Shown here one piece after another: positions 25,669 to 53,079 of a DNA stretch of 64,000 nucleotides. This stretch comes from Minutocellus sp. GHC0000111 (Eukaryota), in assembly GCA_977018835.1 (NCBI GenBank), contig OZ361258.1, forward strand, positions 3,472,001-3,536,000, written 5' to 3'. The notes under the pieces are model-generated. The model searched no databases. It had not been told where the DNA came from and worked only from the letters and a program-made list of their open reading frames with translations. The translations under genes were made by a program, and so were the position numbers. The stretch's first letter is position 1, and the number at the start of each line of letters is the position of its first letter.

Positions 25669-27610
25669 TTAGAGATCGACGGTATCGCCCTTTTCATACT
25701 TGCGCCCGGCATTTTCATTCGCCATTACAGATAGATCGTCGTTGCGTTGTCTTCTCTCCGAACCATAGACGTCCGGGGGTGCTACTGCTGCTGCAGACTT
25801 CAGGCCAAGGCTACTTTCGTCACTGCTAATCACCGAGCCAGAAGCAAAACTCAAAGCCGCCATAACCTCAGAAGCTCTGGCGTCGTTCGAAGCTCCAATG
25901 ACATGGCCAACATTCCTCACATCATTGTGGCGCAACTCAGAGGGAGGTACGGGAGGGGCGTCGCCTTCCACATCGATGAAGACGGGTTCCTTACCAGCGA
26001 GAGTGCATGTTGGACAAGACGAACTCTGACATCTGTGTACGTTGTTGGCCGCAAGGGCTCTCTCAACGTCATCGCTCAAGTCCAGAGCCCTGCTGTCACC
26101 GACCACCAGCACCATTTTGCTACCATCGCTACCGCTGTACTCTGTACTATCTTCAAAGTCGTAGGGAAGCATGTTGGCATTCTTCCTCAAGCCTAGCTCA
26201 TCTTCTCGGATATTGAGCCTCTTGTCGCGATTCTTCTTCCCAACGAGCAAAAGGATGAGACCAACTAGGAGGGTAGTTGCGGCCATGGCAATGATGGGAA
26301 TGATACTTCTGTTGATGCCATCGGTACTTTGGGCTCCAACAGTGCTACTAATCGCAGCAGCGCCACCAGTGCCATTGTTTTCTCCGTCACTGCCGTTACC
26401 GGCACCCTCAGCACCGCCATTAGCAGTGTCGTCCTTCTTATTTTGAGTGAATATGGCAGATACGGTGTGTTTACCATTGTGGTCCCAAGCCGTTGGGTCT
26501 GTTCCCTGGTCAATCTCATCTTTATCATTGACCTACAAGTGGAAAAGAAGGGCGTAAGTAGAAGAGGGAGTCAAATGAGGTGGGGGTTAGACATTGCTTT
26601 GGCCCAATACTTTTGATTCATACCACAATATTCATAAATGGACGAACTCGACTCACTCCGTCTCCATCACTATCGGCATCGTATGGGTCCGTTCCAAGTT
26701 CCATCTCCTCTGCATCCGTCAGTCCATCGCAATCCGAGTCGATCGTTGAGGAGACCTTGCCCTCTTTCGGACCGTTTGGGGATAGTCGCTGCATTCCTCG
26801 TCGGGTGTTCTTCCCTGATTTCGGCATCTTTGCACTTTTGGCGGTCTTGGCGGTTTTGGGCATTTTGTTACCGGCACTGATGGAGTCACTCCTCACGCCG
26901 TCGGGTCCCCTGCCCCCTGGGCGGGGAACACACACGACCTCCTCGCGGACGTCGGTATCATCGCTATCATCGGCATCGACGTTAGTATCAGTGCCAGCAG
27001 TCATTGCTCCTTTCGCTGATTTCGATTTCGGCGTCATATTTGTAGGAATATCGCCATTGGCATCCTGCTTCACTGCTTCTCCAGTAGCATCGACTCCCTT
27101 GGCCGATTTCGGTGTTTTCGTTGTAGTTGGAGTATCAACAGCGTCCTGCTTTACGGCCTCACTAACAGCATCGGTGCCCTTCGACTTGATCGATGTGATT
27201 GAAGAAGGAGTATCAGCATCGCCATTGGCGCCATCCTGCTTGACTACCTGATTGGATTCAATCGTCCCCTTGTGAGACTTGGGCGTCTTGGGCTCAGCGC
27301 CGGTAGCGCCACGAGGGTCAAGATCGTCCATGTAGCCATGTCCGAGAAGTAGTCCATCCTGGGCGCGATTGCCGGTGGTCTTGCCATGCTTTCGGGGCTG
27401 GAAGAGTGGTTTGGGATATATGAGCTCCACACCATCCTTCTCCTTTGGCTGCAGTGATCTTCTGGCGAAGGCATGTCTCCTGGCGCCGCGATGGTACGAG
27501 GCTCCCAGTACACCTCCAGTCTTCGTTTTGGCATCGGCAGTGGTCAGCACGAGGGCCACCGACGAAACGGAAAGAACGAGGGCTGCGGTTGTGGCGGCTG
27601 GAATCCTCAT
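25669..27610 (-). CDS. Secreted, single-pass membrane KXXK-rich (silaffin/SAP-like) protein, paralog A; exons 27610-26657 and 26532-25669 (about 605 aa)
   Basis: Signal peptide, RRSL (RXL) site, KTPK/KSAK/KTAK motifs, two DxDxDG..D..E..GTDP repeats completed across an in-frame GT-AG intron, TM helix IIPIIAMAATTLLVGLILLLVG-KK, cytosolic VHRCQSSSCPTC. Confidence 0.75.
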
Positions 27611-28397
27611 TCTTTAGGAAGAGAGGGATTTAAGGTTAATTTGGCAAAACACGAACCAACGAGAAGGAAAGAAGTCGATGTACCGTCAGTTCAAGAATAC
27701 CACTGAGATAGATTCTACTACTCTGCCGATCGAGATCGTTGACTGATCAATCGATGAATTGGTTGAGATGTCTTTACTCTCTCTTCGTTGTTGCTGGCTG
27801 GTGGAAGGAGGAGAGCACAAAAGGAAAGTAGCCAGAGAAGGTTACGTCGTACTATTTCACTTCGATCTCTACTCTTTGCAAAAAGATGAGAGTGGCATGC
27901 GCCGTCCCATGCGTTGAATAAGACATTGGTAGCGCTAACAACCAAAGGCGGACAAGCAGGAGCGCATCGGTCGGAGACAAGACACATCCAATCGTATTGG
28001 CTGCGCACCAAGATCCACCATTTTGCTGTGCTCAGCGTGCGTTGGATTGTGGCAGGAGCCGGCAGGCTTGCGAGATATTGACTCTGACTCACTCGACTGA
28101 AAATGCAATCGGTGAAAAAGGCCAACCAGACGGCACGGACGTCCCTGCCGGAGCATTTTTTTCATGCTCGATAGACTCGAGCTAGATCTACTAATTGCTA
28201 GTCTAGTAGAGCTACTTGTACATCTGTGCCATCTTTACGCAGTTTTCGATAAAATTATTCTTGCTCACAAACATATAAATTACTGAATAAGGATCGGAGA
28301 TCGTCGTAATCGCTCTCCCCTGACATTTTCATATTTGGCTTCCCGATCGATAGATAATCATAGATCTACTGAAAGCCGCCATCACTTCAGATTGGAC

Positions 28398-31099
28398 TTA
28401 GGCACCCCACCAGCTACACGTCCAGCAATTCACCATCTCTCCAAAGGAATTAGCCGGAGCGGCATCACGATCCTCGGCATCAACGACAATGGGTTCCTTG
28501 CCAGCGAAAGTGTCCCATGATGCAGCTTGAGGTTTATTGCCGCTTTCAATGTCGTCGCTACCACTGGGCTCCGGGAGGTTCTGCAAGCCAATTTCCTCCC
28601 TCTGCACATCGTCGAGGCGTCTCCTGTCGCGCCTCTTCTTTCCAACGACTACTAGAAGAAGACCAACAAGAAGGACGCAAGCTACCATGGCAATGATGGG
28701 TACGCCACTGAAACTGGCACCATTGGAAGTCATGGCTTCATAGGTGTTACTAATCGCAGCATTGACACTGCTCAAAATGCCACCTTCACTGGCACTCTGC
28801 TCTTCGTTGACCTCCTCAACAGCAGCAATGATAGTACCGGTAGAAGGAGCATCTCCATCGTCGGCGCCGGGGGCGCGAGTGTCATCGCCCTGCTCGTCGT
28901 TGGCCCCTTTATTGGTGACAATAGTAGTAGTACTAGTATTAGTACCGGCGGTGTTGGCAGTGCTGGTAACCTTGGTAGACTTTGAAGCTTTAGGAGTATC
29001 TTCGTTGTCGACGGTGCGAGTGGCAATGCTCTCGGCGGTGGCGGCGGTATCGGTAGACTTGACAGACTTGGGAGTTTTCGTCGTTGCAGGAGGGGTAGCG
29101 GTGGGGGCAGCTCCGTTGTCGACGGTGCGAGTGGCGACGCTCTCGGCGGCGGCGGCGGTATCGGTAGACTTGACAGACTTGGGAGTTTTCGTCGTTGCAG
29201 GAGGGGTAGCGGTGGGGGCAGCTCCGTTGTCGACGGTGCGAGTGGCGACGCTCTCGGCGGCGGCGGCGGTATCGGTAGACTTGACAGACTTGGGAGTTTT
29301 CGTCGTTGCAGGAGGGGTAGCGGTGGGGGCAGCTCCGTTGTCGACGGTGCGAGTGGCGACGCTACCGTCGGTACCACTCTCGGCGGCGGCGGCGGTATCG
29401 GTAGACTTGACAGACTTGGGAGTTTTCGTCGTTGCGAGTGGCGACGCTATCGTACTGCTTGTCGTCGGCTTCTTTAGCAGTACCCTTATCAGCAAGGGCC
29501 GACTTGCCGGTGCTGGTCTCGGCTTCTTTAGCAGTACCCTTATCAGCAAGGGCCGACTTGCCGGTGCTGGTCTCGGTAGTCTTAGACTTGGGAGATTTTC
29601 CTTGACTAGGAGTAGAAGGAGCATCATCTCCATTGTCAGTGCGAGTGGCGAGGCTACCCTCGGTAGCGGTGGCGGTGGTAGTACCCTTGGGCGCCTTCAT
29701 CGTTGTGGAAGCAGTATTTCCATCGTCGGTACGTGTTGCGACACCCTCGGTAGCGGTGGCGGTGGTAGTACCCTTGGGCGCCTTCGTCGTTGTGGAAGCA
29801 GTATTTCCATTGTCAGTGCGAGTGGCAAGGCTACCCTCGGTGGCGGTGGCGGTGGCGGTGGTAGTACCCTTGGGCGCCTTCGTCGTTGTGGAAGCAGTAT
29901 TTCCATTGTCAGTGCGAGTGGCGAGGCTACCCTCGGTGGCGGTGGCGGTGGCGGTGGTAGTACCCTTGGGCGCCTTCGTCGTTGTGGAAGCAGTATTTCC
30001 ATTGTCAGTGCGAGTGGCGAGGCTACCCTCGGTGGCGGGTGGCGGTGGTAGTACCCTTGGGCGCCTTCGTCGTTGTGGAAGCAGTATTTCCATTGTCAGT
30101 GCGAGTGGCGAGGCTACCCTCGGTGGCGGTGGTAGTACCCTTGGGCGCCTTCGTCGTTGTGGAAGCAGTATTTCCATTGTCAGTGCGAGTGGCGAGGCTA
30201 CCCTCGGTGGCGGTGGCGGTGGCGGTGGTAGTACCCTTGGGAGATTTGCCACCTTCACCTTCACCGGTACGTGTGACGACACCCTCGGTAGCGGAGGCGG
30301 TGGCGGTAGTACCCTTGGGAGATTTGCCACCTTCACCTTCACCGGTACGTGTGACGACACCCTCGGTAGCGGTGGCGGCGGTAGTACCCTTGGGAGATTT
30401 GCCACCTTCACCTTCACCGGTACGTGTGACGATGCCATTGTCCATGCCACCCTCTGCCTTAGCGGCCTTGGGAGATTTGCCACCTTCACCTTCACCGGTA
30501 CGTGTGACGATGCCATTGTCCATACCACCCTCTGCCTTAGCGGCCTTGGGAGATTTGCCACCTTCACCTTCGCCGGTGCGATTGCCACCGCCCATACCAC
30601 CCTCTGCCTTGGCGGCCTTGGGAGATTTGCCGGCATCTACACCTGCGCCACCGGTGCGGTTGCCACCGCCCATGTTATCACCCTCTCCCTTGGCAGACTT
30701 GGGAGATTTGCCGGCAGCTCCGTTGCCGGCGTCGGTGCGAGTGCCGACGCCAATGTCAACACCTTCGGCACCGTCGGCAGCACCATCTGGACCCTTGGCA
30801 GACTTGGACGATTTGCTGCCATTCACAATGCCGTTGCGATTGAAGTCCGCGTTGCCGTTGAAACCGGCACCAGGACGGCCGGCAAAGAATCCATCGGGAG
30901 TCAAATCCTCCATGTAGCCATGGCCGAGGAGGTAGCCCTCCTTCGTCCGGTCGCCGTTGGGCTTGCCATGATCTTGCGTCTGGTAGGAGTGGTAGGGCTT
31001 GTTGGGGTAGATGAGCGTTTCGGTGGCATCGACGGAGGTTGCCGAAAGGGTGGCAGCGGAGACGACGAGGGCCGCGAAGGTTGCGGCGGGAAATCTCAT
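28398..31099 (-). CDS. Secreted, single-pass membrane KXXK/Thr-rich tandem-repeat protein, paralog B; two frame breaks (about 30037 and 29435)
   Basis: Signal peptide; N-terminal LIYP..HGK..G.R..EG.LLGHGYM.DL shared with paralog A; KSPK/KAAK/KAPK/KSVK repeats spread over three frames; TM GVPIIAMVACVLLVGLLLVVVG-KK and AGKEP motif shared with A. Confidence 0.7.
29005..30640. repeat. Coding minisatellite arrays: about 111-bp units (29.0-29.43 kb), a 51-bp duplication (about 29.47-29.57 kb), about 87-96-bp units (29.63-30.24 kb) and about 72-75-bp units (30.24-30.6 kb)
   Basis: TCGGTAGACTTGACAGACTT recurs at 29050, 29161 and 29272 (111-bp period); the other blocks are near-identical direct repeats. 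Confidence 0.9.
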
Positions 31100-31792
31100 T
31101 TTCTATTTATTGTATGTGAAGCGTTAGCGTTTGTCTGTGTATGTGCTGTGATCAGTATTGTATGTATTGATCTGCGATGTGTGTATCTTGTGCGATCCGA
31201 TCGGTGACAATGCAAATCAGTACAATAATTGCAGCGCTCCCTTCGTTCTGGGTCGGGGCGGTGGAAAAGTGAGCCCACGCAAAGCACAGTGAAACGAGGC
31301 GACGGTCGTCGCCATCCTCCAGGAGGCGGGTCGACGTGTCAGCTTTCACGTCGCCGCCTTCCGTTGCAAAAACCATGTCCCAGATGAGTGCGGATGCACC
31401 GCCCCATGCGTTGGGGACATTTTGACCCAGGAGCACACCTGTTCTAATGGTTCCATAGCGCGATGCCAACAGCCGTCGCCATCATTGGAACCTTCCGCCG
31501 CGCGCTGGCGTGCGTTGGGCAAGCAAGCGTGCCATGGGTTGGGGTCGGATTTATTTTGGCGGCCTGCGGCAGAGAGGCCGGGCAGGCTTGCTCGGCGAGG
31601 TTGGAACAGCTCGTTTGTATCTGGGGAAAACAGGACTCACTCGACTTGTTTATTTTTCAATATCCGTTGGTAGTGTGACTCATAACCTATTGAATCCACC
31701 GCTGTTCCTTCCTTCCGCCCCGCTGGATTTGCCTCGCTTACTTTTGCGTGTTGTTGTTGTTTAGTAACTATCCGCTCGCAAGCTTCCCAACC

Positions 31793-38871: not shown

Positions 38872-39059
38872 TCGCCGGGGATGTAAACTAAACGACTCGA
38901 CTCGACCTCATTAAAGCCGGGCGGGGATCGGGAGGCCAGTTTCGAAGTTCGAAAGTTAGACAGTAGCGCGCGCGGCGGGAAGGGACGGTAAAGGCCGCGG
39001 GCACGTTTCTTCGTTCAGAGTTCTTTTAAGTTTTTGTAAGAAAAACACTCTAATCTTTG

Positions 39060-39262
39060 TTTTGGCGATTTCGCGCGCGATTTTTGTGTGAAGCGCGCGT
39101 TTTTCCGCGGATCACGCGCGAATTTTCGCGGATTCGCGCCGGTCTTGGTTGTGTGTGCATCGCGTTTTTTCGCGGAACGCGCGCGATTTTTAGCGATTCG
39201 CGCGCTTTTTTTGCGTTTTGCGCCGCGCTTTTCCGCAATTCGCGCCGCGCTTTTTCGCGGAT
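39060..39262. repeat. Degenerate tandem repeat of about 19-20 bp, (CGCG..TTTTT..CGCGG), very CpG-rich
   Basis: About ten alternating CGCG blocks and T-tracts, non-coding, just upstream of the retroelement. Confidence 0.75.
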
Positions 39263-39392
39263 AAGTAGAGTGTCTGGAGTTTTTGTGATTGCACAAAAAT
39301 CCCAAATAAAACTAGTGGCAACGGAGATTGCCGTCCCTTCCGGCGCGCGCGGGGGCCCGCCACTGAGCGACACGTCAAAACGATAGTGAAGG

Positions 39393-39866
39393 TGTCATAT
39401 CGAAAGCCAACACAGTGAGCCGCCGGCGAAAGCGCAAAGAAACCACAAGAAGACCGTCCGTCGACGGAGATCTAGAGACGCGCCTAGATCTCCGCCGCAG
39501 ACTCCACATGTGCATGGAGGAATCCTAGCAACGTAGATCTGTCCACAACCCTGGTTAAATCTAGCATGTTTATACTGAACAGAATCCTGCCTCGGTTTTG
39601 ACCTACCAAATGAGTTTTATTTCTCATCCTCTCTCTTGGTCGAACGACACCACCAAACCTTCTGTGCAATTGTTGATGCCGTGGGATACGTACGTACGTA
39701 TACATACGTACGGTACGTACGGTGATCAGACCACTGACTCAGTGCCCTCTCCTGACCGTTGATCCATGGGCCAACGACATCTCCGATGGCCCATTTTTCA
39801 TCTACGCAGGTCCTATTAACCTCTACTAGCTATGTCTGTCTAGCTTAGCTTTAGGACCTCTTAGCA
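39393..39866 (+). repeat. Possible 5' LTR of the copia element (boundaries uncertain)
   Basis: Starts TGT, ends CA, lies about 300 bp before gag, contains an 11-bp hairpin (39465-39494) and a (TACG)n tract; there is no second copy in the window to confirm it. Confidence 0.3.
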
Positions 39867-40162
39867 GACCTACGTGATACATCTTTTCCACCCGTGCTCG
39901 CCCCATTTCGGTTGGTTCGCACCTCACCGGTTTGTCTTGGGTTCTCACTCGTCACGCAAGAAAAACCGACACATCTTCAATCGGCCAAAACGACCGTTTC
40001 TTTCGACAATATTGGAACGACGATCCAATCCCTTCCCCGAAAGTCCTGACCAGATCGACCCATCCAATCGATCACACTTCTCTGGATCGAACCTTCTGTC
40101 GATCACACGTCTCGCACAGCAACGCCGCCGTGCTGCCTGTCTTCGCTGACTGAAACACCAGC

Positions 40163-41446
40163 ATGAATCCCGACGCAGTTTTTGGCCAACCTCTCGGCGC
40201 AGCGCAGATTCTCCCCACCAAGTTAATCACACGTATGAATGACCCAGGACAACCTCCCCAATGCGAGCGTGTTGCCAAAGCGCTCAAGGAACTTCAACAA
40301 GCAAGCGGCGGCCAGCATTCCAGCAGAGGAGGGTGCAATGACCATGGCCTCGGCCATTTGGGCCTCGTCGTCAGCGATGCCGAATGCACCACCAAAAGTA
40401 ACGGCCGACCACATGTGCCTCCGGCAAATCCTGGCCCCAGCCCCACCATTCCCGCCGTGGCCAATCTAGACCAACGCGATCGTGCAATCCGGGGACATTA
40501 CATCGAAAAGGGCCACCACAACTTGCACGAGCAAGTCAACACGGCGCTCAAGAATCTCCTCCTCGACTCGATCGACGCCGTCTACATCAATCATCTCAAA
40601 GATGACATGCTCGGTTTCCAGCCAGTCACCATCCGCCACATCATCGACAGCATTACCGATCGCTACTTGAAATTCAACGAGACTCAGAAGGAGGAATTAG
40701 AGAAGCAGCTCGAGAAGCAGCACGACGGGGGACCCATCGACACCCACATCGCCATGTTCAACAAAGACTTCAAGGCGTTTGAAACGGCCGGCGAACCCTT
40801 CACCAACAAGCAAAAGGTCTCCAAGTTCTACCGCTCCGTGCGCAGGTTCTCATTGGCAAAGAAGGCATGCGAGGACTGGGACGACAGACCGGAGGCCGAA
40901 CGCACGTGGGCCAACATGCAGTCGGACTTCCGCGATTGGCATGATAAGAAGATGGCCAACACCACCGAAGCGGCAGGACATCATGGCGCGAACTTGGCCT
41001 CATCGGCCTCGGACGATCCATTTCTTTCTCGAGCCGATCTCCTTTTGGCTGATGCCACCGAAGCCCTCAAGACCAACCAAGCCATGATGGCGAACCTCGC
41101 CAAAAAGAACGAGAAGGATGATGCCATTGCCAAACTTCGCCAAGAAATAGCTTCACTCAAGGCCGAGAACCGCGTTCTGCGTGAGGGACGCAACCATGCT
41201 GGTGGCAGTGGAGGCTACCGCGGCGGTGGCCAGCAGAACGGCGCCGGCCACTTCCCAGGCCAAGGTCCTAACCTCAACCGCCAGGAGAAGCGGGAACTGC
41301 AGTCGATCCTCCCCAGAGGCCATTGTTGCCACACGTGCGGCTATTCGTCCAACCACCCCAGCTTTGAATGCACTTGCAAAGGGCCCAACCACGTTGATAA
41401 CGCCACCAAGTGCAATCCTTGCAGTGGCAGCTCGCGTCGTAACTGA
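40163..41446 (+). CDS. gag: Retrotransposon Gag
   Basis: GHLGLVVS..E, PANPG, DWDDRPEAERTWAN (CoDi-type gag), C-terminal Cys/His knuckle CHTCGY..H.S.EC....PNH. Confidence 0.82.
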   Translation: MNPDAVFGQPLGAAQILPTKLITRMNDPGQPPQCERVAKALKELQQASGGQHSSRGGCNDHGLGHLGLVVSDAECTTKSNGRPHVPPANPGPSPTIPAVANLDQRDRAIRGHYIEKGHHNLHEQVNTALKNLLLDSIDAVYINHLKDDMLGFQPVTIRHIIDSITDRYLKFNETQKEELEKQLEKQHDGGPIDTHIAMFNKDFKAFETAGEPFTNKQKVSKFYRSVRRFSLAKKACEDWDDRPEAERTWANMQSDFRDWHDKKMANTTEAAGHHGANLASSASDDPFLSRADLLLADATEALKTNQAMMANLAKKNEKDDAIAKLRQEIASLKAENRVLREGRNHAGGSGGYRGGGQQNGAGHFPGQGPNLNRQEKRELQSILPRGHCCHTCGYSSNHPSFECTCKGPNHVDNATKCNPCSGSSRRN

Positions 41447-44400
41447 GCGGGAGGGACGGTGGATGTTAATCAGTGTAAAACAGAGGACAGCATGTCTGAA
41501 TCCACCTCCTCCCCGCCTTCGTTAGCTTTTCTTACGTCAAAAAGCAAACCTCCAACTCAAGAGCCAATCGTCCTCGCAGCAGATGCTGGAACGACGGGAC
41601 ATTTTGTCCAGAAGCCCCAACACCTGTCGCACGATGGCCCTGTTTTCAACGTCCAACAGACAGCAATTCCTATCAGCGTCACCCTTCCGGATGGCAGCAC
41701 AATGACGAACACCCACGAGGCCACGCTTCGCCTCCCTGGGGTTTCCCCATCGGCTAGCAAGGCCTACATTTTCAATAACATGGCATCATCGCTCCTGTCG
41801 ATTGGGCAGCTGTGTGACGATGGATGTGTTGCCACTTTCGATAAGGATTCGGTAGTCATCGCTAAGGACAACACCGTCATTTTGCAAGGCAAACGAGACC
41901 CCTCAACGAAATTGTGGATGGTAGATCTTAATTGCTCGCCCACCATGTCGCCGCTCCCCGGCCCCAACGTCATCCAACATGCTGCCAACGCCGCAATTGC
42001 CCAGGAGACGGTTCCGGAACGTGCAGCCTTTTTACATTGGTGCGCTGGCAGTCCTCAGCTATCTGCCTGGTGCAAAGCAATCGATGCGGGATTTTGTAGA
42101 TCTTGGCCAGGCCTCACACCAAAGCTTGTACGTAAGCACATGCCACAGTCGATGCCGATGATTAAAGGTCACTTAGACCAGCAGCGCAAGAACATCAGGT
42201 CGACCAAGCCCAAACGGTCGATGGCTACGCCAAAATCTCTCCCTGGGGTGGACGAAACCGAGCAGGATCTCCACCCGGCACAACACCAACAGCGCACCAA
42301 CTATGTCTTTGCTGATTGTCATGACACAACGGGCCAGATCTTCTCAGATCAGCCCGGCCGTTTCTTGGTGTCGTCTATTTCTGGCCACCAACACACAATG
42401 GTCGTCTGTGACCATGACTCCAACAGCATCTTGGCCGAACCAATGAAAAGCCGATCGGGAACGGAAATGCGCCGAGCGCACCAAACTGTTTTCGAATGCC
42501 TCTCCAAGCGAGGATTTCGCCCAAAATTGCAACGATTGGACAATGAAGTGAGTCGAGAGCTGAAGGAGTTCATGGAAGAAAAGGATGTAGATTTTCAATT
42601 GACCCCAACGCACTCCCACCGCCGAAATGCGGCCGAACGAGCCATTCGAACCTTTAAGAATCATTTCATTGCGACTCTCTGTGGCACCGATCCCGACTTT
42701 CCCCTCATCTTGTGGGACAAATTGCTGGAGCAGGCGGCAATGACCCTCAATTTCCTGAGAGCATCCCGAGTCAACCCTCGACTATCAGCGTGCGAGCAAC
42801 TCAATGGCGGCTTTGATTTCAATCGCACGCCTCTCGGCCCCCTCGGATGCAAGGTCATCTTTCACGAGATGCCCTCGGCACGCGGCTCTTGGTCCCCGCA
42901 TGGCGTTGATGGGTGCTATGTCGGTCCAGCCATGGAACACTGCCGGTGTTACAAGGTTTGGATTGAGGAAACTCGGGCGGAACGCACTGGCAACACACTC
43001 GTCTGGCTCCCCAAAATGATTCCGGCACCCAAAACGTCGTCGGCCGATGCAGCAACAGTCGCAGCTCATGAACTCCTGCACGCTCTACAGAATCCACATC
43101 CAGCGGCACCCCTTGCTCCCCTTCGAGACGAGCATCGTCAAGCTTTAGAAAAGCTCTCCGAGATTTTCAACAGCGTGACCCCAGCAGAATCTGCCACCTC
43201 CGCCTCTGATGAGACGATGCAGACAACCGCAGCTCCGAGGGTGCTGGAGAACGATGACGACTCCCAACGATTCCGCCTCGGTGCCATCGTCGCCAAAGTG
43301 TTTGGAGATCGCAATTACAAGGGCAGAGTCGTTGCATTTGACAAGAAGTGTAAGCACTACAAAATCAAATACGAGGACGACGACGTAGAAGAGATGAACG
43401 AGACTGAAGCAGGCCGTCACCTTGTCTCCAACCCCAACGCTCCGTTGCCTCAGCCCCAGCAACCTCCGAGGGTGGCAAAATCCTCCACATGTAATGCAGC
43501 CACCACTAAAAGCCGTCGATCACGTCGATCCAACGCGCCACCTCGCTCGTCAGTTTCTTCCAACTGCTACAATCCTTTGGCTGCAGCAGACGAGCCCAAC
43601 GGCGACGATGATGACAATCATGACGACGATGCAACCGTCGCAACATCCAATCAAAGTTCCAATGCCCCCACCTCCCGTCGGCAACGTAAACGCAAGTCTC
43701 CAACGATCGACACCACTCCAACATTACCAGCTCCAGCAAAATCGACAAGCAAGTCCAAACCATCGACCGCCAAACCACCTCGACGACGATCACACCGTCA
43801 GCGAGGGCACATTCCACATCGGAACCCTCCCCCACGGCCATCATCTCGTCGTAGCACCCACCACGTGGTTAACATGGCAGCTTTCTCGCCTTTACCAAAC
43901 CTCCAACACTTTGCTAACGCCGTCGTCCATCCCGATGCTGGTGCAATGCTTGAACACCGCGACCTCCTCAAAACGAACATGAGGGACCAATTCATTCAAG
44001 CAAACATTGATGAAATTGGACGGCTAACGGACGGCCGAGTTGGAAACAGTGCTAGCACTCCCTCCAACACAATGGCTTTCGTCCACTGGTCCGAACTGCC
44101 TCGGGGAAAAAAGCCACATGCCTCCGCATTGTCGCCGACTATCGCTCCCATAAACCAAATCCTAATCGAGTTCGATGGACTGCAGGAGGCGACAAAATTC
44201 ATTACCCTGGTGCAGTCTCGACCCCGACCGCTGAAATGTTGACTGCAAAGTTACTTTTCAACAGCGTCATCTCTACAGACAACGCTCGTTTCATGGGAAT
44301 TGATATCAGTGACTTCTATCTCAATGGCACCATGCCAGAGCCAGAATGGATGTGGGCGCCAGTAGCTCTCATCCCCGACGAAGTCATGGAAGCCTACGAC

Positions 44401-45285
44401 CTCCACGACAAAGTAAAGAATGGTCGAGTGTTGGTCAGAATCGATGGCGGAATGCATGGATTACCCCAGGCAGGGCGCCTAGCCTACGATCAACTTGTCA
44501 AGCATCTCAAACCCCATGGCTGTTTCCCTTGCAAGCGTGCTGCCGGCCTTTGGAGGCACAAAACCCGCCCAATTACCTTTTGCCTAACCGTTGACGATTT
44601 TGGAGTAAAGCATGTCGGGAAAGAGCATGCAGACCATCTCATTCAGGCCCTCAACTCCAAGCACAAGATCACTACCGATTGGGAAGGCCGACTTTATTGT
44701 GGTGTTCAACTCGAGTGGAACTACGAGGCCAAATGGGTGGATCTATCTATGCCTAACTTCGTCAAGGAGATGCGCCACAAGTTCCAACACGACCGCCCCT
44801 CACGGCCCGAGCATGCGCCACATCGATGGAATCGTCCGACGCATGGCCCGGGACCCCAGCTGCCAGAACCGGAAGACGACTCACCACCACTCGACGCCAA
44901 AGGCATCAACGAAATTCAACAGGTGGTGGGCAGCTCCTTGTGCTATGGTCGAGCAATTGATTCAACAATTTTACCGGCGCTCAATGGCATGTCTCAGCGG
45001 AACAATCCAAAGCTACCGAGCGCACTCGACAAGATGCCAAGAAGCTTCTAGATTGCCTTGCAACCCATCCCGACGCAGTCATTCGATGCGTCAAGTCAGA
45101 CATGATCCTACATGCACATAGCGACGCCTCCTGCTTGTCAGCCCCGAAATCAAGAAGCAAGCTCGGAGGGCACTTCTACCTAAGCTCCCGACCTAAGCAC
45201 CCGCACCGCCAGCCTGACTCAAGGGATCCCATGCCACCAATGAATGGAGCCATCCTCGTCAATGCCAATGTCATCAAGCATGTCT
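41447..45285 (+). pseudogene. pol: Retrotransposon Pol (PR-IN-Tudor-like insert-RT-partial RNase H), broken into three frames
   Basis: ORFs 41459-44242, 44236-45051 and 45102 onward join into a continuous copia Pol once two indels are corrected. Confidence 0.88.
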
Positions 45286-45828
45286 CTGGCGGTAAAACAG
45301 CACGCATGCACCAGCAGCATTTACGCCGCGAAAATGGCACTTCTGTTGCGGGCTCACAGCAGGAGTGTGCCATCATGACCGGCGTTGGAGCAACAATGGG
45401 CCGACGTTGGTCGACGCCAAGCAACAGCATGCAGCAGCGTCTCATCGTGTCAAAGCGGACGCGTTGGTTGTTCAGTGGATGCCGCACTTCAATGCTAATG
45501 GCCGGCATCCACTCCAGTGCCGTCGGTCCCCATAGCGCCCACAGCGCCCACAGCGCCTACAGCGCCCGCTCCCCAGCTCGCTCCTTTGGCTCATTGGCTT
45601 GGCTCTTGGCTCCCGGGCTCCCGCTCCGCTCTTTGCGGATGCATCCGGATGCCTTTACCCAAATTTGACACGTCAACATGCATCGATGGTTCTGGTGCCG
45701 GCAGGGAACGGCCAAGCTTCTCACATGGACGTGGTCCATCCTCAATTGACGTGTTCCGGCCACCAGGTCAGTCAATCCCGGCCAATCCGGCCACGTCGGC
45801 TCTCGCCCATTGCTGTATTGCTGTGTGG

Positions 45829-45989
45829 CGGCAGGTCATTCTGTTTTGTCCCCGCCGAAACCTGCCGAATGACTTGCCGCTTTGCGCCCGGTAGGCAAGC
45901 AAATCTCGGGAAAACGTCATATTTGCGTCAATTCGAAAGAAATTGCACAATGACCTGCCGCGAGAGAAAATGCAAGTTTGGCAGGTCAT
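45829..45989. repeat. Cluster of direct and inverted AATGACCTGCCG motifs, possibly the subterminal region of a DNA transposon
   Basis: Reverse-complement copy 45829-45840, AATGACTTGCCG 45868-45879, AATGACCTGCCG 45949-45960, reverse-complement GGCAGGTCAT 45980-45989. Confidence 0.55.
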
Positions 45990-46565
45990 CGAATATCCAT
46001 CGGTGCTCCACGCCTTCGACTACGGTTCCTCGCCTCTACCCCCTGTGCTGTGGTAGAATCCACACAGTTCCCATTTATGATCTCACAATTGGAATTGGCT
46101 GCCTTTTGTAAAGCAAACCCGAGGTGAGCACGTGAATGTTTTTGGTCTGATATTATGATGTGACATCGCTACGTGCGCTGTCGCGGTAGTCAACTCGTTG
46201 GGAGTTCTGCCATCGTTCCGACTTGGATCGGCTCTCACGACGACGAAGTAGGCCACGAAATCGTTTTGTGCTTCCTCATCCTTCTTCATTGAATGCGTCG
46301 CATTCCATGGCGTACATGTACATGTATCTCGCTCCCAAACACATCACATCTCGCATGATATTTCGTCTACTTATATTTTCACTCAGACGAGCACAACAGC
46401 CTCGCGACCGCATTGCCGATTGATCTCATCTGTGCCACCCCTGGCATACTGACTTGTATTTTCCCCACACTTCCCACTAATTCATCTCGTTCGCCCGTCT
46501 AGCGCGAGGTGCATTCTTCGCCGTTCGCTCCTCGGTTCAATCCAGCAAGGAAGTCAACCACGACC

Positions 46566-47197
46566 ATGAAGTTGAATTTGCCCATCGTTTTCCTCGCCCT
46601 ATCGATCCCTACCGCCGTCGTGACCGCCTCCTCCGGGCGTCTGCACAGCGGAGGAGTCAAATCGATTCAGGCAGAGAAGGCATCTGCCACCGAGACCCAG
46701 GCCGTCCATTCCCTCGAGACCAAGGTGCGTTGCTTGTGTGTATGATAGGGTGACATGCCACCGTGCGTGCAAAAAGTTTTGTGCTACTTTCGAATTCGGC
46801 AGTTTGCTGGTTTTGTGTGCTTGGTCAAGTCAAGTGGGGTTTGGAATGAATTATGCATGTGTTGGAACGAGGGCGATTGTGGGCCACACGCCTCCCCTGG
46901 CACACGCCGATTTGTATATTCATACGAACAATCGATCCCTTGTATGGCCTCGAAATGGGTGTCGTATCTTGGTTTTACATTCTTGCATGTGATGTGAAAT
47001 CGTCTTTCTGTCGCCGTCATAACTCATGATCATCATCGCATCGTCGGCAATTTGCCTCATTCTCTGCGTAGACCGCCGCAGCTCACCTGCCTCTGCTTTC
47101 GCTCTACTCTTACCGCTCTGTCCCGCCCCACTCTGCCACCACTTATTATATTTCACCACGATGTCGCCCAGTCTGATGCCGGCCGTGTGCTGCTGCT

Positions 47198-47228
<31 letters not shown>

Positions 47229-50200
47229 CAGCGCACTCTGACGGGCTTTCCCTCGTGGTTCCCTCCCTCGACGGCGGGAGGAGATGCGAGAACTGGAACA
47301 ACGTTTGCCGCACGGGCTCGAGCCCCAACAACGGCTGCGCTCAGGTGTGCACCCCGCCCGATGGAGTGTGTTCCTGTGGGTGGGGCTACTCCCTCGATGC
47401 CGACGGCAAGAACTGCGTTGCAAGTGGCGAAGCCAACGTCGCGCCGGGGAGACCATCGTCCTGGATACCGACGCCTTCCCCGCCGGTTACTCCTTCAGCT
47501 CCCTGGCCGTTGCCCAGGGCGGTGTCCTCACCGCCACGGGGTCCAATCCGCTCATCATTACGGTCGACACGTCCGTGGACATCCAGGGCCACATCAATCT
47601 CAATGGCGGCAAGGGTGGCAACTCGGCCGGAGATCACAAGGCCGCCGGTGGCGGTGCCGGTGGAGGCGCTCTGCGCATTCAGGCCGCCACCATCAATGTC
47701 GGTTCCAGCGGTGCCATCACCGTCGATGGAGGAGACGGCGGAGACGGCGGCGCAGATGGCCAGGGTTTCTTCCCCAACTCCTACTCCGATGAGGTTGCCG
47801 GGGATGGTTCCGGTGGTGTTGGCATCGCCGGGGGATTCAATGGTGGCGCTGGTGGCGCATCGAATCAGGATGGCTTTCCGGGAGAGGGACCAGGAGCCTC
47901 TCAGGGCAGTCCCACCAGCGGTGGAGTGCCGCCTGGAGCGGGAGGTGCCGGCCACGCCTGGTACGTTGAACATGGTGTGAAACTGTTGGTATTGTTCGCT
48001 TGATTTTTGTTATCTCAAATCGTAGCACCAACAGCCTGGATTGACGATTCATGTATTTGCCATGTTCCATTCATTCATTCATTCATTCATTCATTCATTC
48101 ATTCATTCATTCATTCATTCATTCATTCATTCATTCATTCATTCATTCATTCATTCATTCATTCATTCATTCATTCATTCATTCATTCATTCATTCATTC
48201 ATTCATTCATTCATTCATTCATTCATTTCATTCATTCATTCATTCATTCTTCTTCTCCTCCACAATGGCGGTGCCAGGAGCTTTTGGCAGTATGCAGGGA
48301 TACCTCAGCCAGGTGGTCCGAAATATAATGACAAGGATCTATCGTTGGGCCTCTATGGTGGCAGTGGTGCCGGAGGTGGTGGCAACGATGGTGACAATGA
48401 GGAAGGAGCCGGAGGTGGAGGCTCGGGAGGAACGATTCATCTTATCGCCACTACTATCCAGATTGACGGCGCTGTCACCGCCAACGGTGGCCTCGGCGGC
48501 AGAGATGACTACCATTACAATGGAGGTGATAGAGAGTGTTGTAACAATGGCGGTCCTGGTTCAGTGGGCCGAATCAAGCTCGATTACAGCAGTCTGACGG
48601 GCAACCTCGCCAGCATCTTCCCGCTGGCCAATGCGGAACCAACTCCTGATATCTGCCACGCCACGGCAAATCAAGATACTGCAACGGACGCCCCTCAGCT
48701 TGCTGACCCTGTCCCACCTACCGATCAGTGTGCCACAAGCAACAATGGCTGTGAACAGCTTTGCTCTAGTCCCTATGGCACCTGCTCTTGCAATGCCGAA
48801 TATGCTCTGAATTCTGATGGCAAGACGTGTTCGATCATCGATCAATGTGCCACAAACAATAACGGCTGTGCCCACGCATGTAGCAGTCCCGCTGGAGCCT
48901 GTTCTTGTAATTCCGGCTATCTTCTGGGTTCTGATGGGAAGAGTTGTGATGACATCAACGAATGTGATACCAACAACGGCGGTTGCGACGCCAATGCTTC
49001 CTGTCAGAATACTGCTGGCGGCTTCACCTGTAGTTGCAACTCTGGATTTGCTGGCGATGGCAACAGCTGTACCGACATCGACGAATGCTCAGATGGCACC
49101 GATAATTGCCACGCCAATGCTTCTTGTCAGAAACCATCGGTGGCTTTACCTGCACATGCAACTCAGGATATGCAGGGGACGGCGTATCTTGCTCGGTAAG
49201 CTCATGAATATGACATGATGCGATATCGATCCATCACTCCCCACATATTTATTTTATGCTACATCCAACCTCACGTTTTAATGCATATCACTTTCCCCCC
49301 ACTTACCTGTCCAGGACATCAACGAATGTGCCGATGGTACCCACAGCTGTGACGCCAACGCTTCGTGTGAGAATTCCCCAGTTGGTAGCCATTCATGCAC
49401 ATGCAATTCGGGTTACGAAGGCAATGGCAACACTTGTACTGACATCGATGAGTGTGCTACAGACAATGGTGGTTGTGCCCATATTTGTACCGACACGGAT
49501 GGTAGCTTCGAGTGCTCGTGTCGAGCCGGGTACGCCCTTGACGACAATAGCTTTGGCTGCTCTACCATTTATATCGGGGCTGGCCAGACTCTTCCTGAGG
49601 CCGAGACGGCTTCGATTGAGGCCGCCAATACCGTTACTACCTTCTTCACCGCTCGCTCGGCATACGAGGTTGCCAGCCACAATCTTGATGTTGCTACTAC
49701 TGAACTTGACGATGCCACTACTGCCCATGACGAGGCTAAGGACAAAACCTTTGCGCTCACCAAGGCGTACGAACAGGCTGCTGCCTACGAAGCCACCATG
49801 AAGAAGGCATTCGATGATGCCAAAACTCGCGCCGACGCCTCCGATGCTAGCGCGGCCGAGCGATACCGTCTCCTCATCGAGGCCGAGATTGCCTACAACG
49901 AGGCTGCCGCCGTCAGCGCCAAGGCCGAGGAAGCCAAGGAAGCTGCCGAGTCTGAAGAGTCGGCTGCTGCTTCAGTTTTGGCCGAAGCTACCGCCGCCAA
50001 GGATCAGGCTACCACTGCTGAGGCTGCGGCCAAGACAGCCCTTGATTCCGAGCTGGCCGACGTCAATGCCAATGCTCTCATCCCGAAGATCAACCCCGCC
50101 ACCCTCGATTTTCCCTACGTTGATACGGACGGCGATCTGATTCCCAACGACTTTGATGCCTGTCCTACTCAGATGGGTCTTCGTCGCAACACCGACGATC

Positions 50201-53079
50201 GCACTAGCTCCGACAATCCCGGCCCTCAAGACTTTTGCCCTTCTGGTTGTCCCGAGACGGATGCCGCTGGCACCATCCTGGATTCCGATGACGATGGCAT
50301 TCCCGATTGCGAGGATCGCTGCCCCTTCGAGGCCGGTATCAAGTACAACCATCTCTGGACATGGGATAAGTTCAATGCCAACGAGATCGACACGCTCGAT
50401 GCCAACATGGCGTATCACGGCTGTCCCGACCGAGACAATGACGGTATCCCCGACAAGTTCGATGCCTGCCCCACCCAGGCTGGTGGCAAGTGCTACTCTG
50501 GATGTCCCGACAAGGGCATTGATCCCGTCACCGAAAAGCCTTACGATGGAGACATGGACGGTGTGTCGGATTGCGATGATCGTTGCCCTGGCTTCTACGG
50601 TCCCGGAAACAGCGGCGGTTGTCCCGATGGCGATTTCGATGGCACGCCCGATTACCGTGATTACTGGTGAGTACCGGTTACTATTAGGATGTGGCGCTCT
50701 TGGTATCATTATGATGTGCTCTATGGTGTCTTATTTAACTACAGCATTTACTGTGTTCACTCACAAATCATTTGCTCTCTTTCTTCGTCTCTACAATCTG
50801 CTTCTCGCAGCCCCTCCAATCCTGGCGACGCCCTCTTTGAGTACGAACGTAAGCTCGAGAGCAACACCCAAAAGTACATGAACATTCTTGGTTGCCCCGA
50901 TACGGACGAGGATTTGGTCCCCGACCAGGCCGATCTCTGCGATGCCCCTGCCTTCCCCAACCAGGATGTTTCAATCTATACCGGACTCACGCGTGTTGCC
51001 ATTGTCGACAATATGGGCTGCCCACTCGACAGCGACCAAGATGGTGTTTATGATGGAATTGACAACTGTGATGGTACCGTCCACAGCACCAATCCTGTTC
51101 ATGATCCCCGAGTTGTTGTCTTGTCCCCATCTGACGCTGGCTTCTCTGCCTCCGATGACCAGACCAAGCTCGGTTGCCCCAAGGATACGGATAATGACGG
51201 CGTCGCCGATGGTATTGACCAATGCCCAGCCGAAGGCGGCTACATCGGCCGTGATGGTTGCCCCATCGATTCCGACAACGATGGTGTAAAGGATTGCATC
51301 TCCAATGAGGCTCCCGCTTCCTACACCCGGCCCTTTCAGCCTACCACCTGCCATTCCACCGAAGCCAAGCCCGATGCAGCCTGCTGCACCTTCGAGCAGG
51401 ACATGTGTGCCGACACCGTCCGAGGTGCTACAGTGTATGCCATAGAGTACACCCACCCCAAGCTCGGTGCTCCCGTCGATCCAGGATGCTCCTTTGATCT
51501 TGATAAGGACGGCGTAGTCGACGGCGTTGACCTTTGTCCTTACACGACCGAGTTAGAGATTGCTCTGGCCAAATCCGACCCAAAAAAGGTGTCCATCGAC
51601 GAGAAAGGCTGCGCCACCATGTCAGCCCCGATGTGGGAGTCAACCTTTGTTGATGTTACCACCGGTTCGGAGGGTGCCAACCCCAAGGTAGAGCTGCTCT
51701 TCACCGTGGATGCTCTCCTCCCTCAAATCGCAACCTCGCGTAAATACGATGTTGCCAACGAGTTGGTCGCTGTCCAGGTAATGGATGCCTCGTGCACCAA
51801 TACTTTTGACGATGAGACCGATGCCGATGATAAGCTTCTTCCTGTCACTATCGCCGTCAACGACAAGGGTCTGTTCACCGGCCAGACTCCTACTGGTTCC
51901 ATTCCCATTACTATCGACCTCAATCTCAACCCTGACAATGTTGTCGGATCGGAGGTTTGGACCACCAAGGCACCGTACGATGTCGGAAGTATCGATTTCT
52001 GCCTCGGATTTGCCGTTCTATCCGATACCAAGAGTGCGTTCTCTTACTGATCCATTTTTGTTTCGTCGCCCATCGTGTCTCTATTTTTATTTATCGATAT
52101 TCTTTGACTCACTTTGATTCGTGGTCTTTCTTCCTTTTGTCTATCAACCGTCTCCACAGAATCTGTCACCTACAAGGAGCTCAAGACGACCATCCTTATC
52201 GACATGACTCAGGATTTCGCCGTCGCTGACATCAGCGTCGAGCGTAACGAGGCCGAGGAGACCACCAAGCTGATCGACATCGAATACCCTCTCGCCGCTT
52301 GTCAGTGCACCAACGACAATGTGTGCGTTGAGGATTCGGATCTCGATGATTCCTTCCTTTCCCAGAGTGACTCCCTCAAGCTCTGCGTCCGCTTCGCTCC
52401 CGATGCCGACAACGGCGATGTGCTGCCCCCTGATTACGTTCAGATGACTGATGTCAAGTCCTTCACTTGCAACCAGGGCGGTCTGTCCATCTCGCCCATT
52501 GTCAACTTTGAGCGTCAGGGTGACGGAGGTCAGCTCACTTCCGTCGAGACGATCAACAAGGAGCTTGGCAGTGGAGAGAGTTACACCGACGACGACCGTA
52601 TGCTCATTGTCAACACCCGGCTTCCTGCTACCTTCTTTGGTGCCGAGGAGCGCCCCGTTGACTGCGTCGGTACCATCGTGTATGAGTTCGCTGCTGGAAG
52701 TGTCATCGATCCTGACCTCGTCGGTACCGGCCGCCAGCGTCTTTTGTCCGAGGCTTCGGTGCCCCTCACCTCTGGTCAGACCAACCGCCGTGATGCCGAG
52801 GAGGCCCCCGAGGCGGAGGCCGAGTCCTCTATCGAGGTCATGCTCGCCAAGGCCGCCGGAGGACGTAGTCTAGGCGTCATTGTCGGCGCTGCCGTGGCAT
52901 CTACCCTTGTGGTTGTATCGGGCGCTGCCGTAGCTACCATGACTCTTCGTCGCCCAAGTGTCGGCGTTGCCAAGATGAGCGGCCGCCACGCTTCAGTCCA
53001 AGAGTCTTGGGCCGAGACCTCAGCCAGCACTCAAGAAGAAGGTCGTGCCTTTACAATTTCCAATGGTGCAGTGGCCTAA
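46566..53079 (+). CDS. Large multi-exon cell-surface protein: signal peptide, RXL sites, EGF/cbEGF repeats, Gly-rich domain, Ala-rich coiled coil, TSP3-like repeats, C-terminal TM; several apparent 1-nt deletions
   Basis: MKLNLPIVFLALSIPTAVVTA signal; DINEC..NNGGC..NASC.N..GGF.C.C..GF.GDG cbEGF units; DxDxDG..D..D.CP repeats; TM LGVIVGAAVASTLVVVSGAAVATM. Donors near 46724, 47961, 49196, 50667 and 52033; frame slips at about 47262, 47448 and 49135. Confidence 0.75.
48068..48249. repeat. (CATT)n microsatellite, about 45 units, intronic
   Basis: Near-perfect CATT run with one interruption near 48225; follows the GTACGT donor at 47961. Confidence 0.97.

Follow-up and report, generated by a model that had tools for sequence, protein, structure and literature searches.

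The window analysed here, a 64,000-nucleotide stretch of contig OZ361258.1, carries a copia-type long terminal repeat (LTR) retrotransposon whose family has been subject to a real, context-specific and strand-symmetric mutator. The data support a single process that converts TpA to TpG or CpA, the same transition seen from either strand, and that operates at the DNA level on the element while sparing genes. The evidence comes from a comparison of the pol sequence of this copy with intact relatives of 1,200–1,399 residues (P0001–P0003). P0001 and P0002 are in agreement at 932 of the 1,226 pol codons compared, and 96 of these deviate in the window. These deviating codons comprise 22 A>G and 20 T>C changes at TpA, 10 A>G or T>C changes outside TpA, 14 C>T or G>A changes, 23 transversions and 7 multi-step changes; 42 of the 52 single-step A>G and T>C changes are thus located at TpA, compared with the 15% predicted by chance (p=2e-25). 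Tyrosine is the residue least retained. Among the 42 Tyr common to P0001 and P0002 the window displays 13 Tyr, 16 His, 11 Cys and 2 Phe, whereas the intact relatives retain 42 of 46 aligned Tyr among themselves. Ile (32/43) and Thr (52/62) are the next most depleted, with the other residues retained at 88–100%. The first pol open reading frame (ORF; 41447–44242) contains only 8 Tyr in 931 codons, while Tyr accounts for 4.1–4.3% of the intact relatives.

These results bear out most of the initial annotation, which had inferred the process from family consensus motifs and had noted the scarcity of Tyr in what it took to be about 880 codons. Thirteen of the codon positions it listed (41585, 42392, 42395, 42407, 42413, 43937, 43955, 44119, 44455, 44611, 45054, 45114 and 45132) are as described, and P0002 contains Thr, Tyr, Ile or Val at each, showing that this intact relative does not already possess Cys, His or Ala at these sites. 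Its view that TA>TG and TA>CA represent one event on both strands is upheld by the balance of A>G and T>C at TpA. One of its examples, the change of a WTV motif to WTA, is insecure as intact P0001 also reads WTA.

At the DNA level the only comparison available was with L001, the sole one of 80 metagenome loci that is near enough (75.7% identity over 2.9 kb). The 104 TA steps of L001 appear in the window as 17 TA, 39 CA and 25 TG, and changes from TA to CA or TG outnumber the reverse by 64 to 11 (7 + 4; p=3e-10). No directional bias was evident at TpC, TpG or TpT in the same comparison (p 0.14–0.83). The direction of change, as the initial annotation had argued, is opposite to that of fungal repeat-induced point mutation (RIP), and a C:G>T:A process of that type is ruled out. 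CpG decay is also not prominent; in sister copies of the element (see below) 10/2529 positions were changed at CpG, compared with 28/7290 at other C/G. Two CpG-type private changes were observed in gag, at 40262 and 40598. The 80 metagenome loci include no member of the family and none with Tyr loss (Y>C 0–3 per locus); two of them, L005 and L016, display a CpG observed/expected ratio of 0.24 with Tyr intact, consistent with CpG decay, without TpA-type loss of Tyr, in other hosts.

The distribution of the changes was explored in at least 43 sister fragments, which are 88–98% identical to the window and reside on contigs of 22 different sizes, mostly 0.2–5.3 Mb. The fragments are proteins obtained by searching for shorter proteins and from two cluster listings, which included 15 of the 30 members of the largest cluster; among 48 candidates, three at ∼85% and two at ∼89–90% identity (reverse transcriptase only) were excluded before counting, leaving 43. 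Of 630 codons compared, the window departs from the majority of sisters at 28. Setting aside one artefact at a start codon, 24 of the remaining 27 are TpA steps (codon 42152 was reclassified by hand); 24 of the 26 single-step A>G or T>C deviations are at TpA. Each of 16 Tyr sites is still Tyr in some sisters, and ten read both His and Cys in others, while Arg, the product of a double hit, occurs once. The flanking base influences the outcome, with Tyr codons preceded by a purine reading 73 Tyr, 52 His and 40 Cys, and those preceded by a pyrimidine 104 Tyr, 2 His and 16 Cys (p=5e-13). In 61 TpA-informative codons (41459–43346) the sisters carry 130 A>G and 86 T>C hits, and both strands are hit in 30 of the 37 sequences with at least two hits. 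Hits are not clustered by strand (same-strand neighbours 0.507 vs 0.499 when shuffled). The load is overdispersed between copies, ranging from 0/27 to 29/51 (chi2 204, 40 df), and shows no link with the remaining divergence (rho 0.18, p=0.27). In the window copy 30 of the 61 informative codons are hit, yet only 2 of 567 other codons are changed; in the sisters about 1% of other codons are changed, and the hits are near-pure transitions at one dinucleotide. As the sister copies are mosaics, in which Tyr, His and Cys differ copy by copy, the hits appear to be independent between copies, which argues for a process acting on integrated double-stranded DNA; they were likely made after insertion.

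These data bear on the proposal that the changes arose before insertion, through ADAR-like editing of the RNA intermediate or reverse transcriptase error. ADAR favours U before the edited A, according to the main text of Mettrop et al. (bioRxiv 10.64898/2026.01.13.699255), and A>G outnumbers T>C in the sisters, although more codon types reveal A>G. The proposal is, however, contradicted by the presence of T>C hits in the same copies, where the two strands are interleaved, by the excess of His over Cys at Tyr codons after a purine, and by the near parity of the two classes in the window, making it the least credible of the explanations considered.

A four-base target rule emerged from the sister copies. 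With contexts written on the strand where A becomes G (R, purine; Y, pyrimidine), hit rates are 148/494 for RTAY (30%), 54/476 for YTAY (11%), 14/392 for RTAR (3.6%) and 0/183 for YTAR (0%). The pyrimidine 3′ of the A is the most important feature, its effect being about eightfold after a purine, whereas a purine 5′ of the T contributes a further factor of about three. The window copy reflects this rule. Its gag-pol retains 4 RTAY in 5.1 kb (0.8 per kb) where ∼67 are expected, compared with densities per kb of 13.1 for L001, 10.2 for the 80 loci together and 11.0 for the remainder of the window; the density of YTAR in gag-pol is unchanged. A general AT>GC drift, or gene conversion between copies with a GC bias, might be invoked from the public X1 contigs, in which, over 9.8 kb, 94 places read T/A against C/G in the window and 48 show the opposite. 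This explanation is contradicted by the context specificity of the hits, with no direction at TpC, TpG or TpT, a strong flank rule and largely private alleles, and is highly improbable. An origin as a side effect of heterochromatin that involves no enzyme dedicated to defence, for example through error-prone repair or through a translesion polymerase working at flexible TpA steps, deserves somewhat more weight, as the influence of both flanks, the unclustered hits on both strands and the uneven load are what a chromatin-state effect would give. Against this view are the near purity of the transitions, the complete sparing of YTAR, the ∼1% change at other codons and, in the available text of PMC6604790, a baseline Phaeodactylum tricornutum spectrum that is GC>AT biased; such an origin is improbable.

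Host sequences within the window do not share the depletion. RTAY occurs at 4.5–12.7 per kb in atp1, CBP and GT90 (figures from one window), and atp1 retains 12 of the 16 Tyr of mammalian F1-α with no His and no Cys at these positions (counted by eye), in agreement with the initial annotation. Tandem repeats within a host gene at 29–31 kb, which are coding and short, keep RTAY at 13–17 per kb. Part of the element is also spared. The 5′ LTR keeps 9 RTAY in 197 bp, in a GTAC/ATAC array at 39687–39718, while the adjacent gag-pol retains ∼6%; only two TA sites in the LTR, 39807 and 39838, are changed. Sparing of the array could reflect protection, conversion between LTRs or slippage. The downstream flank (45284..46400) is unmutated, with RTAY at 8.1 per kb and no differences from X1 contigs, which are identical over 45310–45671 and 45673–46400. 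In the upstream flank (39285..39580) 7 of 14 listed A/T>G/C differences are at TpA (p=0.003), but these contig-level contexts derive from 40 of 199 difference rows and from divergent alleles, and are only weak evidence that mutation spills over from the element. Extending further upstream, at 38974–39365, is a 392-bp CG-rich low-complexity piece with imperfect 30-bp inverted arms, missing from one X1 contig, which contains no RTAY among 9 TA. It is possibly an insert resembling a miniature inverted-repeat transposable element that has been mutated too.

Changes at seven element sites (39807, 39838, 41475, 41693, 43793, 44212 and 44986) are not shared by the whole family, as in the same 40 of 199 difference rows most of the DNA contig depth shows TA there, where the window has CA or TG. 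This observation, and the possibility that the window and sister contigs come from one platform, would fit a base-calling or assembly artefact in which a modified base at TpA of repeat DNA is misread in long-read data. Several data argue otherwise. Illumina RNA contigs from two studies (X6 and X9) lack A at 44212; the X6 contig covering 44121–44521 has just 2 differences from the window despite TpA-type changes at 44212, 44326, 44455 and 44515; and at 41475, 43793 and 44212 the T/A allele is absent from 15–26% of X1 depth. Furthermore, the comparable TpA data from the chlorarachniophyte Bigelowiella natans are, in the main text of that report, Illumina based (bioRxiv 10.64898/2026.01.13.699255). 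Miscalling is therefore unlikely, and the artefact as a full explanation very much so, although direct short-read support is thin. Were it correct, a TpA-specific base modification on repeats would still follow.

The explanation we favour, with a probability of roughly 55%, is that a host activity is steered to silenced foreign DNA after insertion, where it most likely works by deaminating the A of TpA(Y). Silent chromatin or small RNA would single out the copies as targets; the A would be deaminated to inosine and read as G at the next replication; a single hit would remove the TpA, making double hits rare; and hits would accumulate in episodes. The ensuing loss of conserved Tyr, Thr, Ile and Val would disable gag-pol without creating stop codons. 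The initial annotation had proposed a repeat-targeted adenine pathway, of which strand symmetry and restriction to the element stand, while adenine chemistry is no more than likely and a homology trigger no more than possible. Its suggestion that the element is inactivated without stops is plausible with respect to the loss of Tyr in gag-pol; the copy, however, is also frameshifted and 3′-truncated. A bolder form of the favoured explanation is tentative, and we consider it somewhat more likely to be wrong than right. It posits a diatom DNA adenine editor for genome defence that is guided to silenced transposons, acts on R-TA-Y on either strand in copy-by-copy bursts, skips the LTR promoter array, kills elements by removing Tyr and, being shared with Rhizaria, represents an old and widespread ‘reverse RIP'.

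Several points weigh against adenine deamination as a defence. TA>TG/CA reads equally well as T>C on the partner strand, and the sequence cannot separate the two chemistries. As the initial annotation had indicated, no responsible enzyme is visible in the window; a Pfam scan of 33 window ORFs revealed no deaminase domain. Processive deaminases of single-stranded DNA cluster their hits by strand, a pattern not seen here. TAT is hit as often as TAC (102/457 vs 100/513), and the 3′ base dominates, while for the adenine base editor ABE7.10 the 3′ effect is smaller than the 5′ effect in the available text of PMC8065034. Short-read support for the mutated allele amounts to one directly seen site, the sister fragments are protein sequences taken from assemblies with long contigs and of unstated platform, and some may be alleles or duplicates of one another (P0171/P0303, P0302/P0304). 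A defensive role is only proposed, and the frameshifts and truncation of the window copy argue against TpA editing as the sole cause of its inactivation.

The main rival to adenine deamination is thymine oxidation with the same targeting, in which a TET/JBP-type enzyme would oxidize the T of 5′-RTA-3′ to 5-hydroxymethyluracil (5hmU) and then 5-formyluracil, leading to T>C through mispairing with G or misrepair. By symmetry the predicted pattern is identical. 5hmU pairs with A as T does, however, and a second step is therefore required. In dinoflagellates, 5hmU produced by TET/JBP overlaps repeats, is tied to the silencing of transposable elements and is reported to prefer TA and TC, although the main text of that study makes no mention of diatoms or T-to-C changes (PMC11572971). 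No directional excess at TpC was apparent here. Thymine oxidation is the less likely chemistry by some distance, yet it ranks ahead of the other alternatives.

The annotation had set the element at 40163–45285; gag-pol does lie within these bounds, but the copy starts upstream at the LTR, ends at 45283 and contains two pol frameshifts. All parts are on the plus strand. The 5′ LTR (39671..39867; 197 bp, TG...CA) is supported by a rise in public contig depth and loose ends at 39671 and 39866, and is followed by a leader (39868..40162), placed by the LTR end and the gag ATG. The gag ORF (40163..41446) encodes C-terminal Cys/His knuckles and has one remaining RTAY; over residues 232–427 it shows 79% identity to L001, and the 5 Tyr of L001 appear in the window as 2 His, 2 Cys and 1 Tyr. 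The gag ORF closes with a TGA, behind which pol continues without a change of frame, and the surroundings of this junction (41444–41470) are near-identical in L001 (1560–1600), indicative of a conserved read-through-like or reinitiation junction. Alignment to P0001–P0003 divides pol into three pieces, with frameshifts near 44102 (44102–44113) and near 44990. The first (41447..44113; 75–82% identity to P0001/P0002) contains protease, integrase, a PTM/DIR17-like Tudor domain and the start of the reverse transcriptase, on Pfam evidence; the second (44104..44994; 82–84% identity) reverse transcriptase (RVT_2 E=5.6e-6, under the curated cut-off); and the third (44991..45283; 85% identity to P0002 residues 1176–1273) the reverse transcriptase end and the start of RNase H, within which pol breaks off. 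The protease and RNase H are presumed from sequence motifs. Integrase precedes reverse transcriptase in the colinear P0002, where DDE_3 and SH3_retrovirus are located before RVT_2, all weak matches under curated cut-offs. The Tudor-like domain, at 43280–43410 (E=1e-11), is also present in P0001–P0003 and might read chromatin for target choice. An intact full-length pol of the family was not found among proteins of 581–2000 residues (best match 82–84% identity), which is weak evidence of absence.

No 3′ LTR is present among the window repeats displayed, and X2 contigs run on in different sequence behind 45283. One X1 contig links 39670 to 45283 element-free with ∼360 other bases between, as deduced from record coordinates, indicating that the insertion is polymorphic; the window allele has likely lost its 3′ end together with some flank. 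Contigs X6 and X9 from RNA libraries span much of 39671–45400, and the family may be transcribed, DNA carry-over being the alternative source. Pol homologues at 43–49% identity are found in Phaeodactylum, Attheya and Thalassiosira. These homologues, a DUF1995 gene with a signal-plus-AF leader and KxxK-rich secreted proteins suggest that the host is likely a diatom; atlas and PDB searches with atp1 gave no placement of it. The KxxK-rich proteins are encoded on the minus strand at 25669–31102 as two paralogous secreted, membrane-anchored proteins with tandem repeats, presumably silaffin/silicanin-like. A long (CATT)n microsatellite at 48068–48250 is located within an EGF/TSP3-repeat gene region (46920–53079).

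With respect to known systems, the element resembles diatom CoDi elements in its TG..CA LTR and protease-integrase-reverse transcriptase-RNase H order, and differs from CoDi, as described in the available text of PMC2806351, in the Tudor-like domain after integrase. Dinoflagellate 5hmU is similarly a thymine mark on repeats biased to TA and TC, but in the parts of PMC11572971 considered it is a silencing mark rather than a mutator. The TadA-derived ABE7.10 also mediates A>G with T before the A, preferring TA and TAC (PMC8065034, text available in part), whereas natural TadA acts on tRNA, and in the present data TAT and TAC are hit alike and the influence of the 3′ base is much greater. In common with ascomycete RIP, dinucleotide-biased transitions occur on both strands of repeats while genes are spared; RIP, however, consists of C:G>T:A changes, chiefly at CpA, and generates TpA, which is here removed. 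The family is multi-copy, but a RIP-like homology trigger is no more than possible, since host tandem repeats keep RTAY and the B. natans target, in the main text of that paper, is a single-copy region. Diatoms have a RID-related DNMT4 (PMC9998398, seen in part), but such an enzyme methylates cytosine and so does not account for A:T>G:C.

The closest parallel is provided by B. natans, for which the main text of a 2026 preprint describes TpA>TpG/CpA in integrated nucleocytoplasmic large DNA virus and virophage DNA, arising de novo in Illumina-sequenced lines at about 1000-fold over background; its authors propose an ADAT-like deaminase and suggest an extension to transposons (Mettrop et al., bioRxiv 10.64898/2026.01.13.699255). 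Both systems affect both strands of foreign DNA only, unevenly between lines or copies, with no enzyme named in either. The TpA process itself has thus been reported once before. Literature searches found no report of the signature in diatoms or LTR elements, and a term search of the available text of a 2025 diatom transposable element preprint returned no mention of TpA, hypermut, RIP or deamin. What is new here is the host, the target and the flank rule; the B. natans main text, which contains no mention of diatom, context, LTR or retrotranspos, describes neither the RTAY>YTAY>RTAR>YTAR rule nor a spared LTR array. If the activity is a natural A-to-G DNA editor it would add a new branch to genome defence and offer a starting point for base editing, and the process would bias the dating and annotation of transposable elements, and GC content, in diatom genomes. 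In contrast to the de novo viral changes of B. natans, those reported here are standing variation among copies of a multi-copy LTR retrotransposon in a likely diatom. They extend the mutational process of that preprint to LTR retrotransposons and, likely, to a second eukaryotic supergroup, and provide a four-base target rule together with a multi-copy family, young and only partly mutated, whose individual copies allow the process to be quantified.

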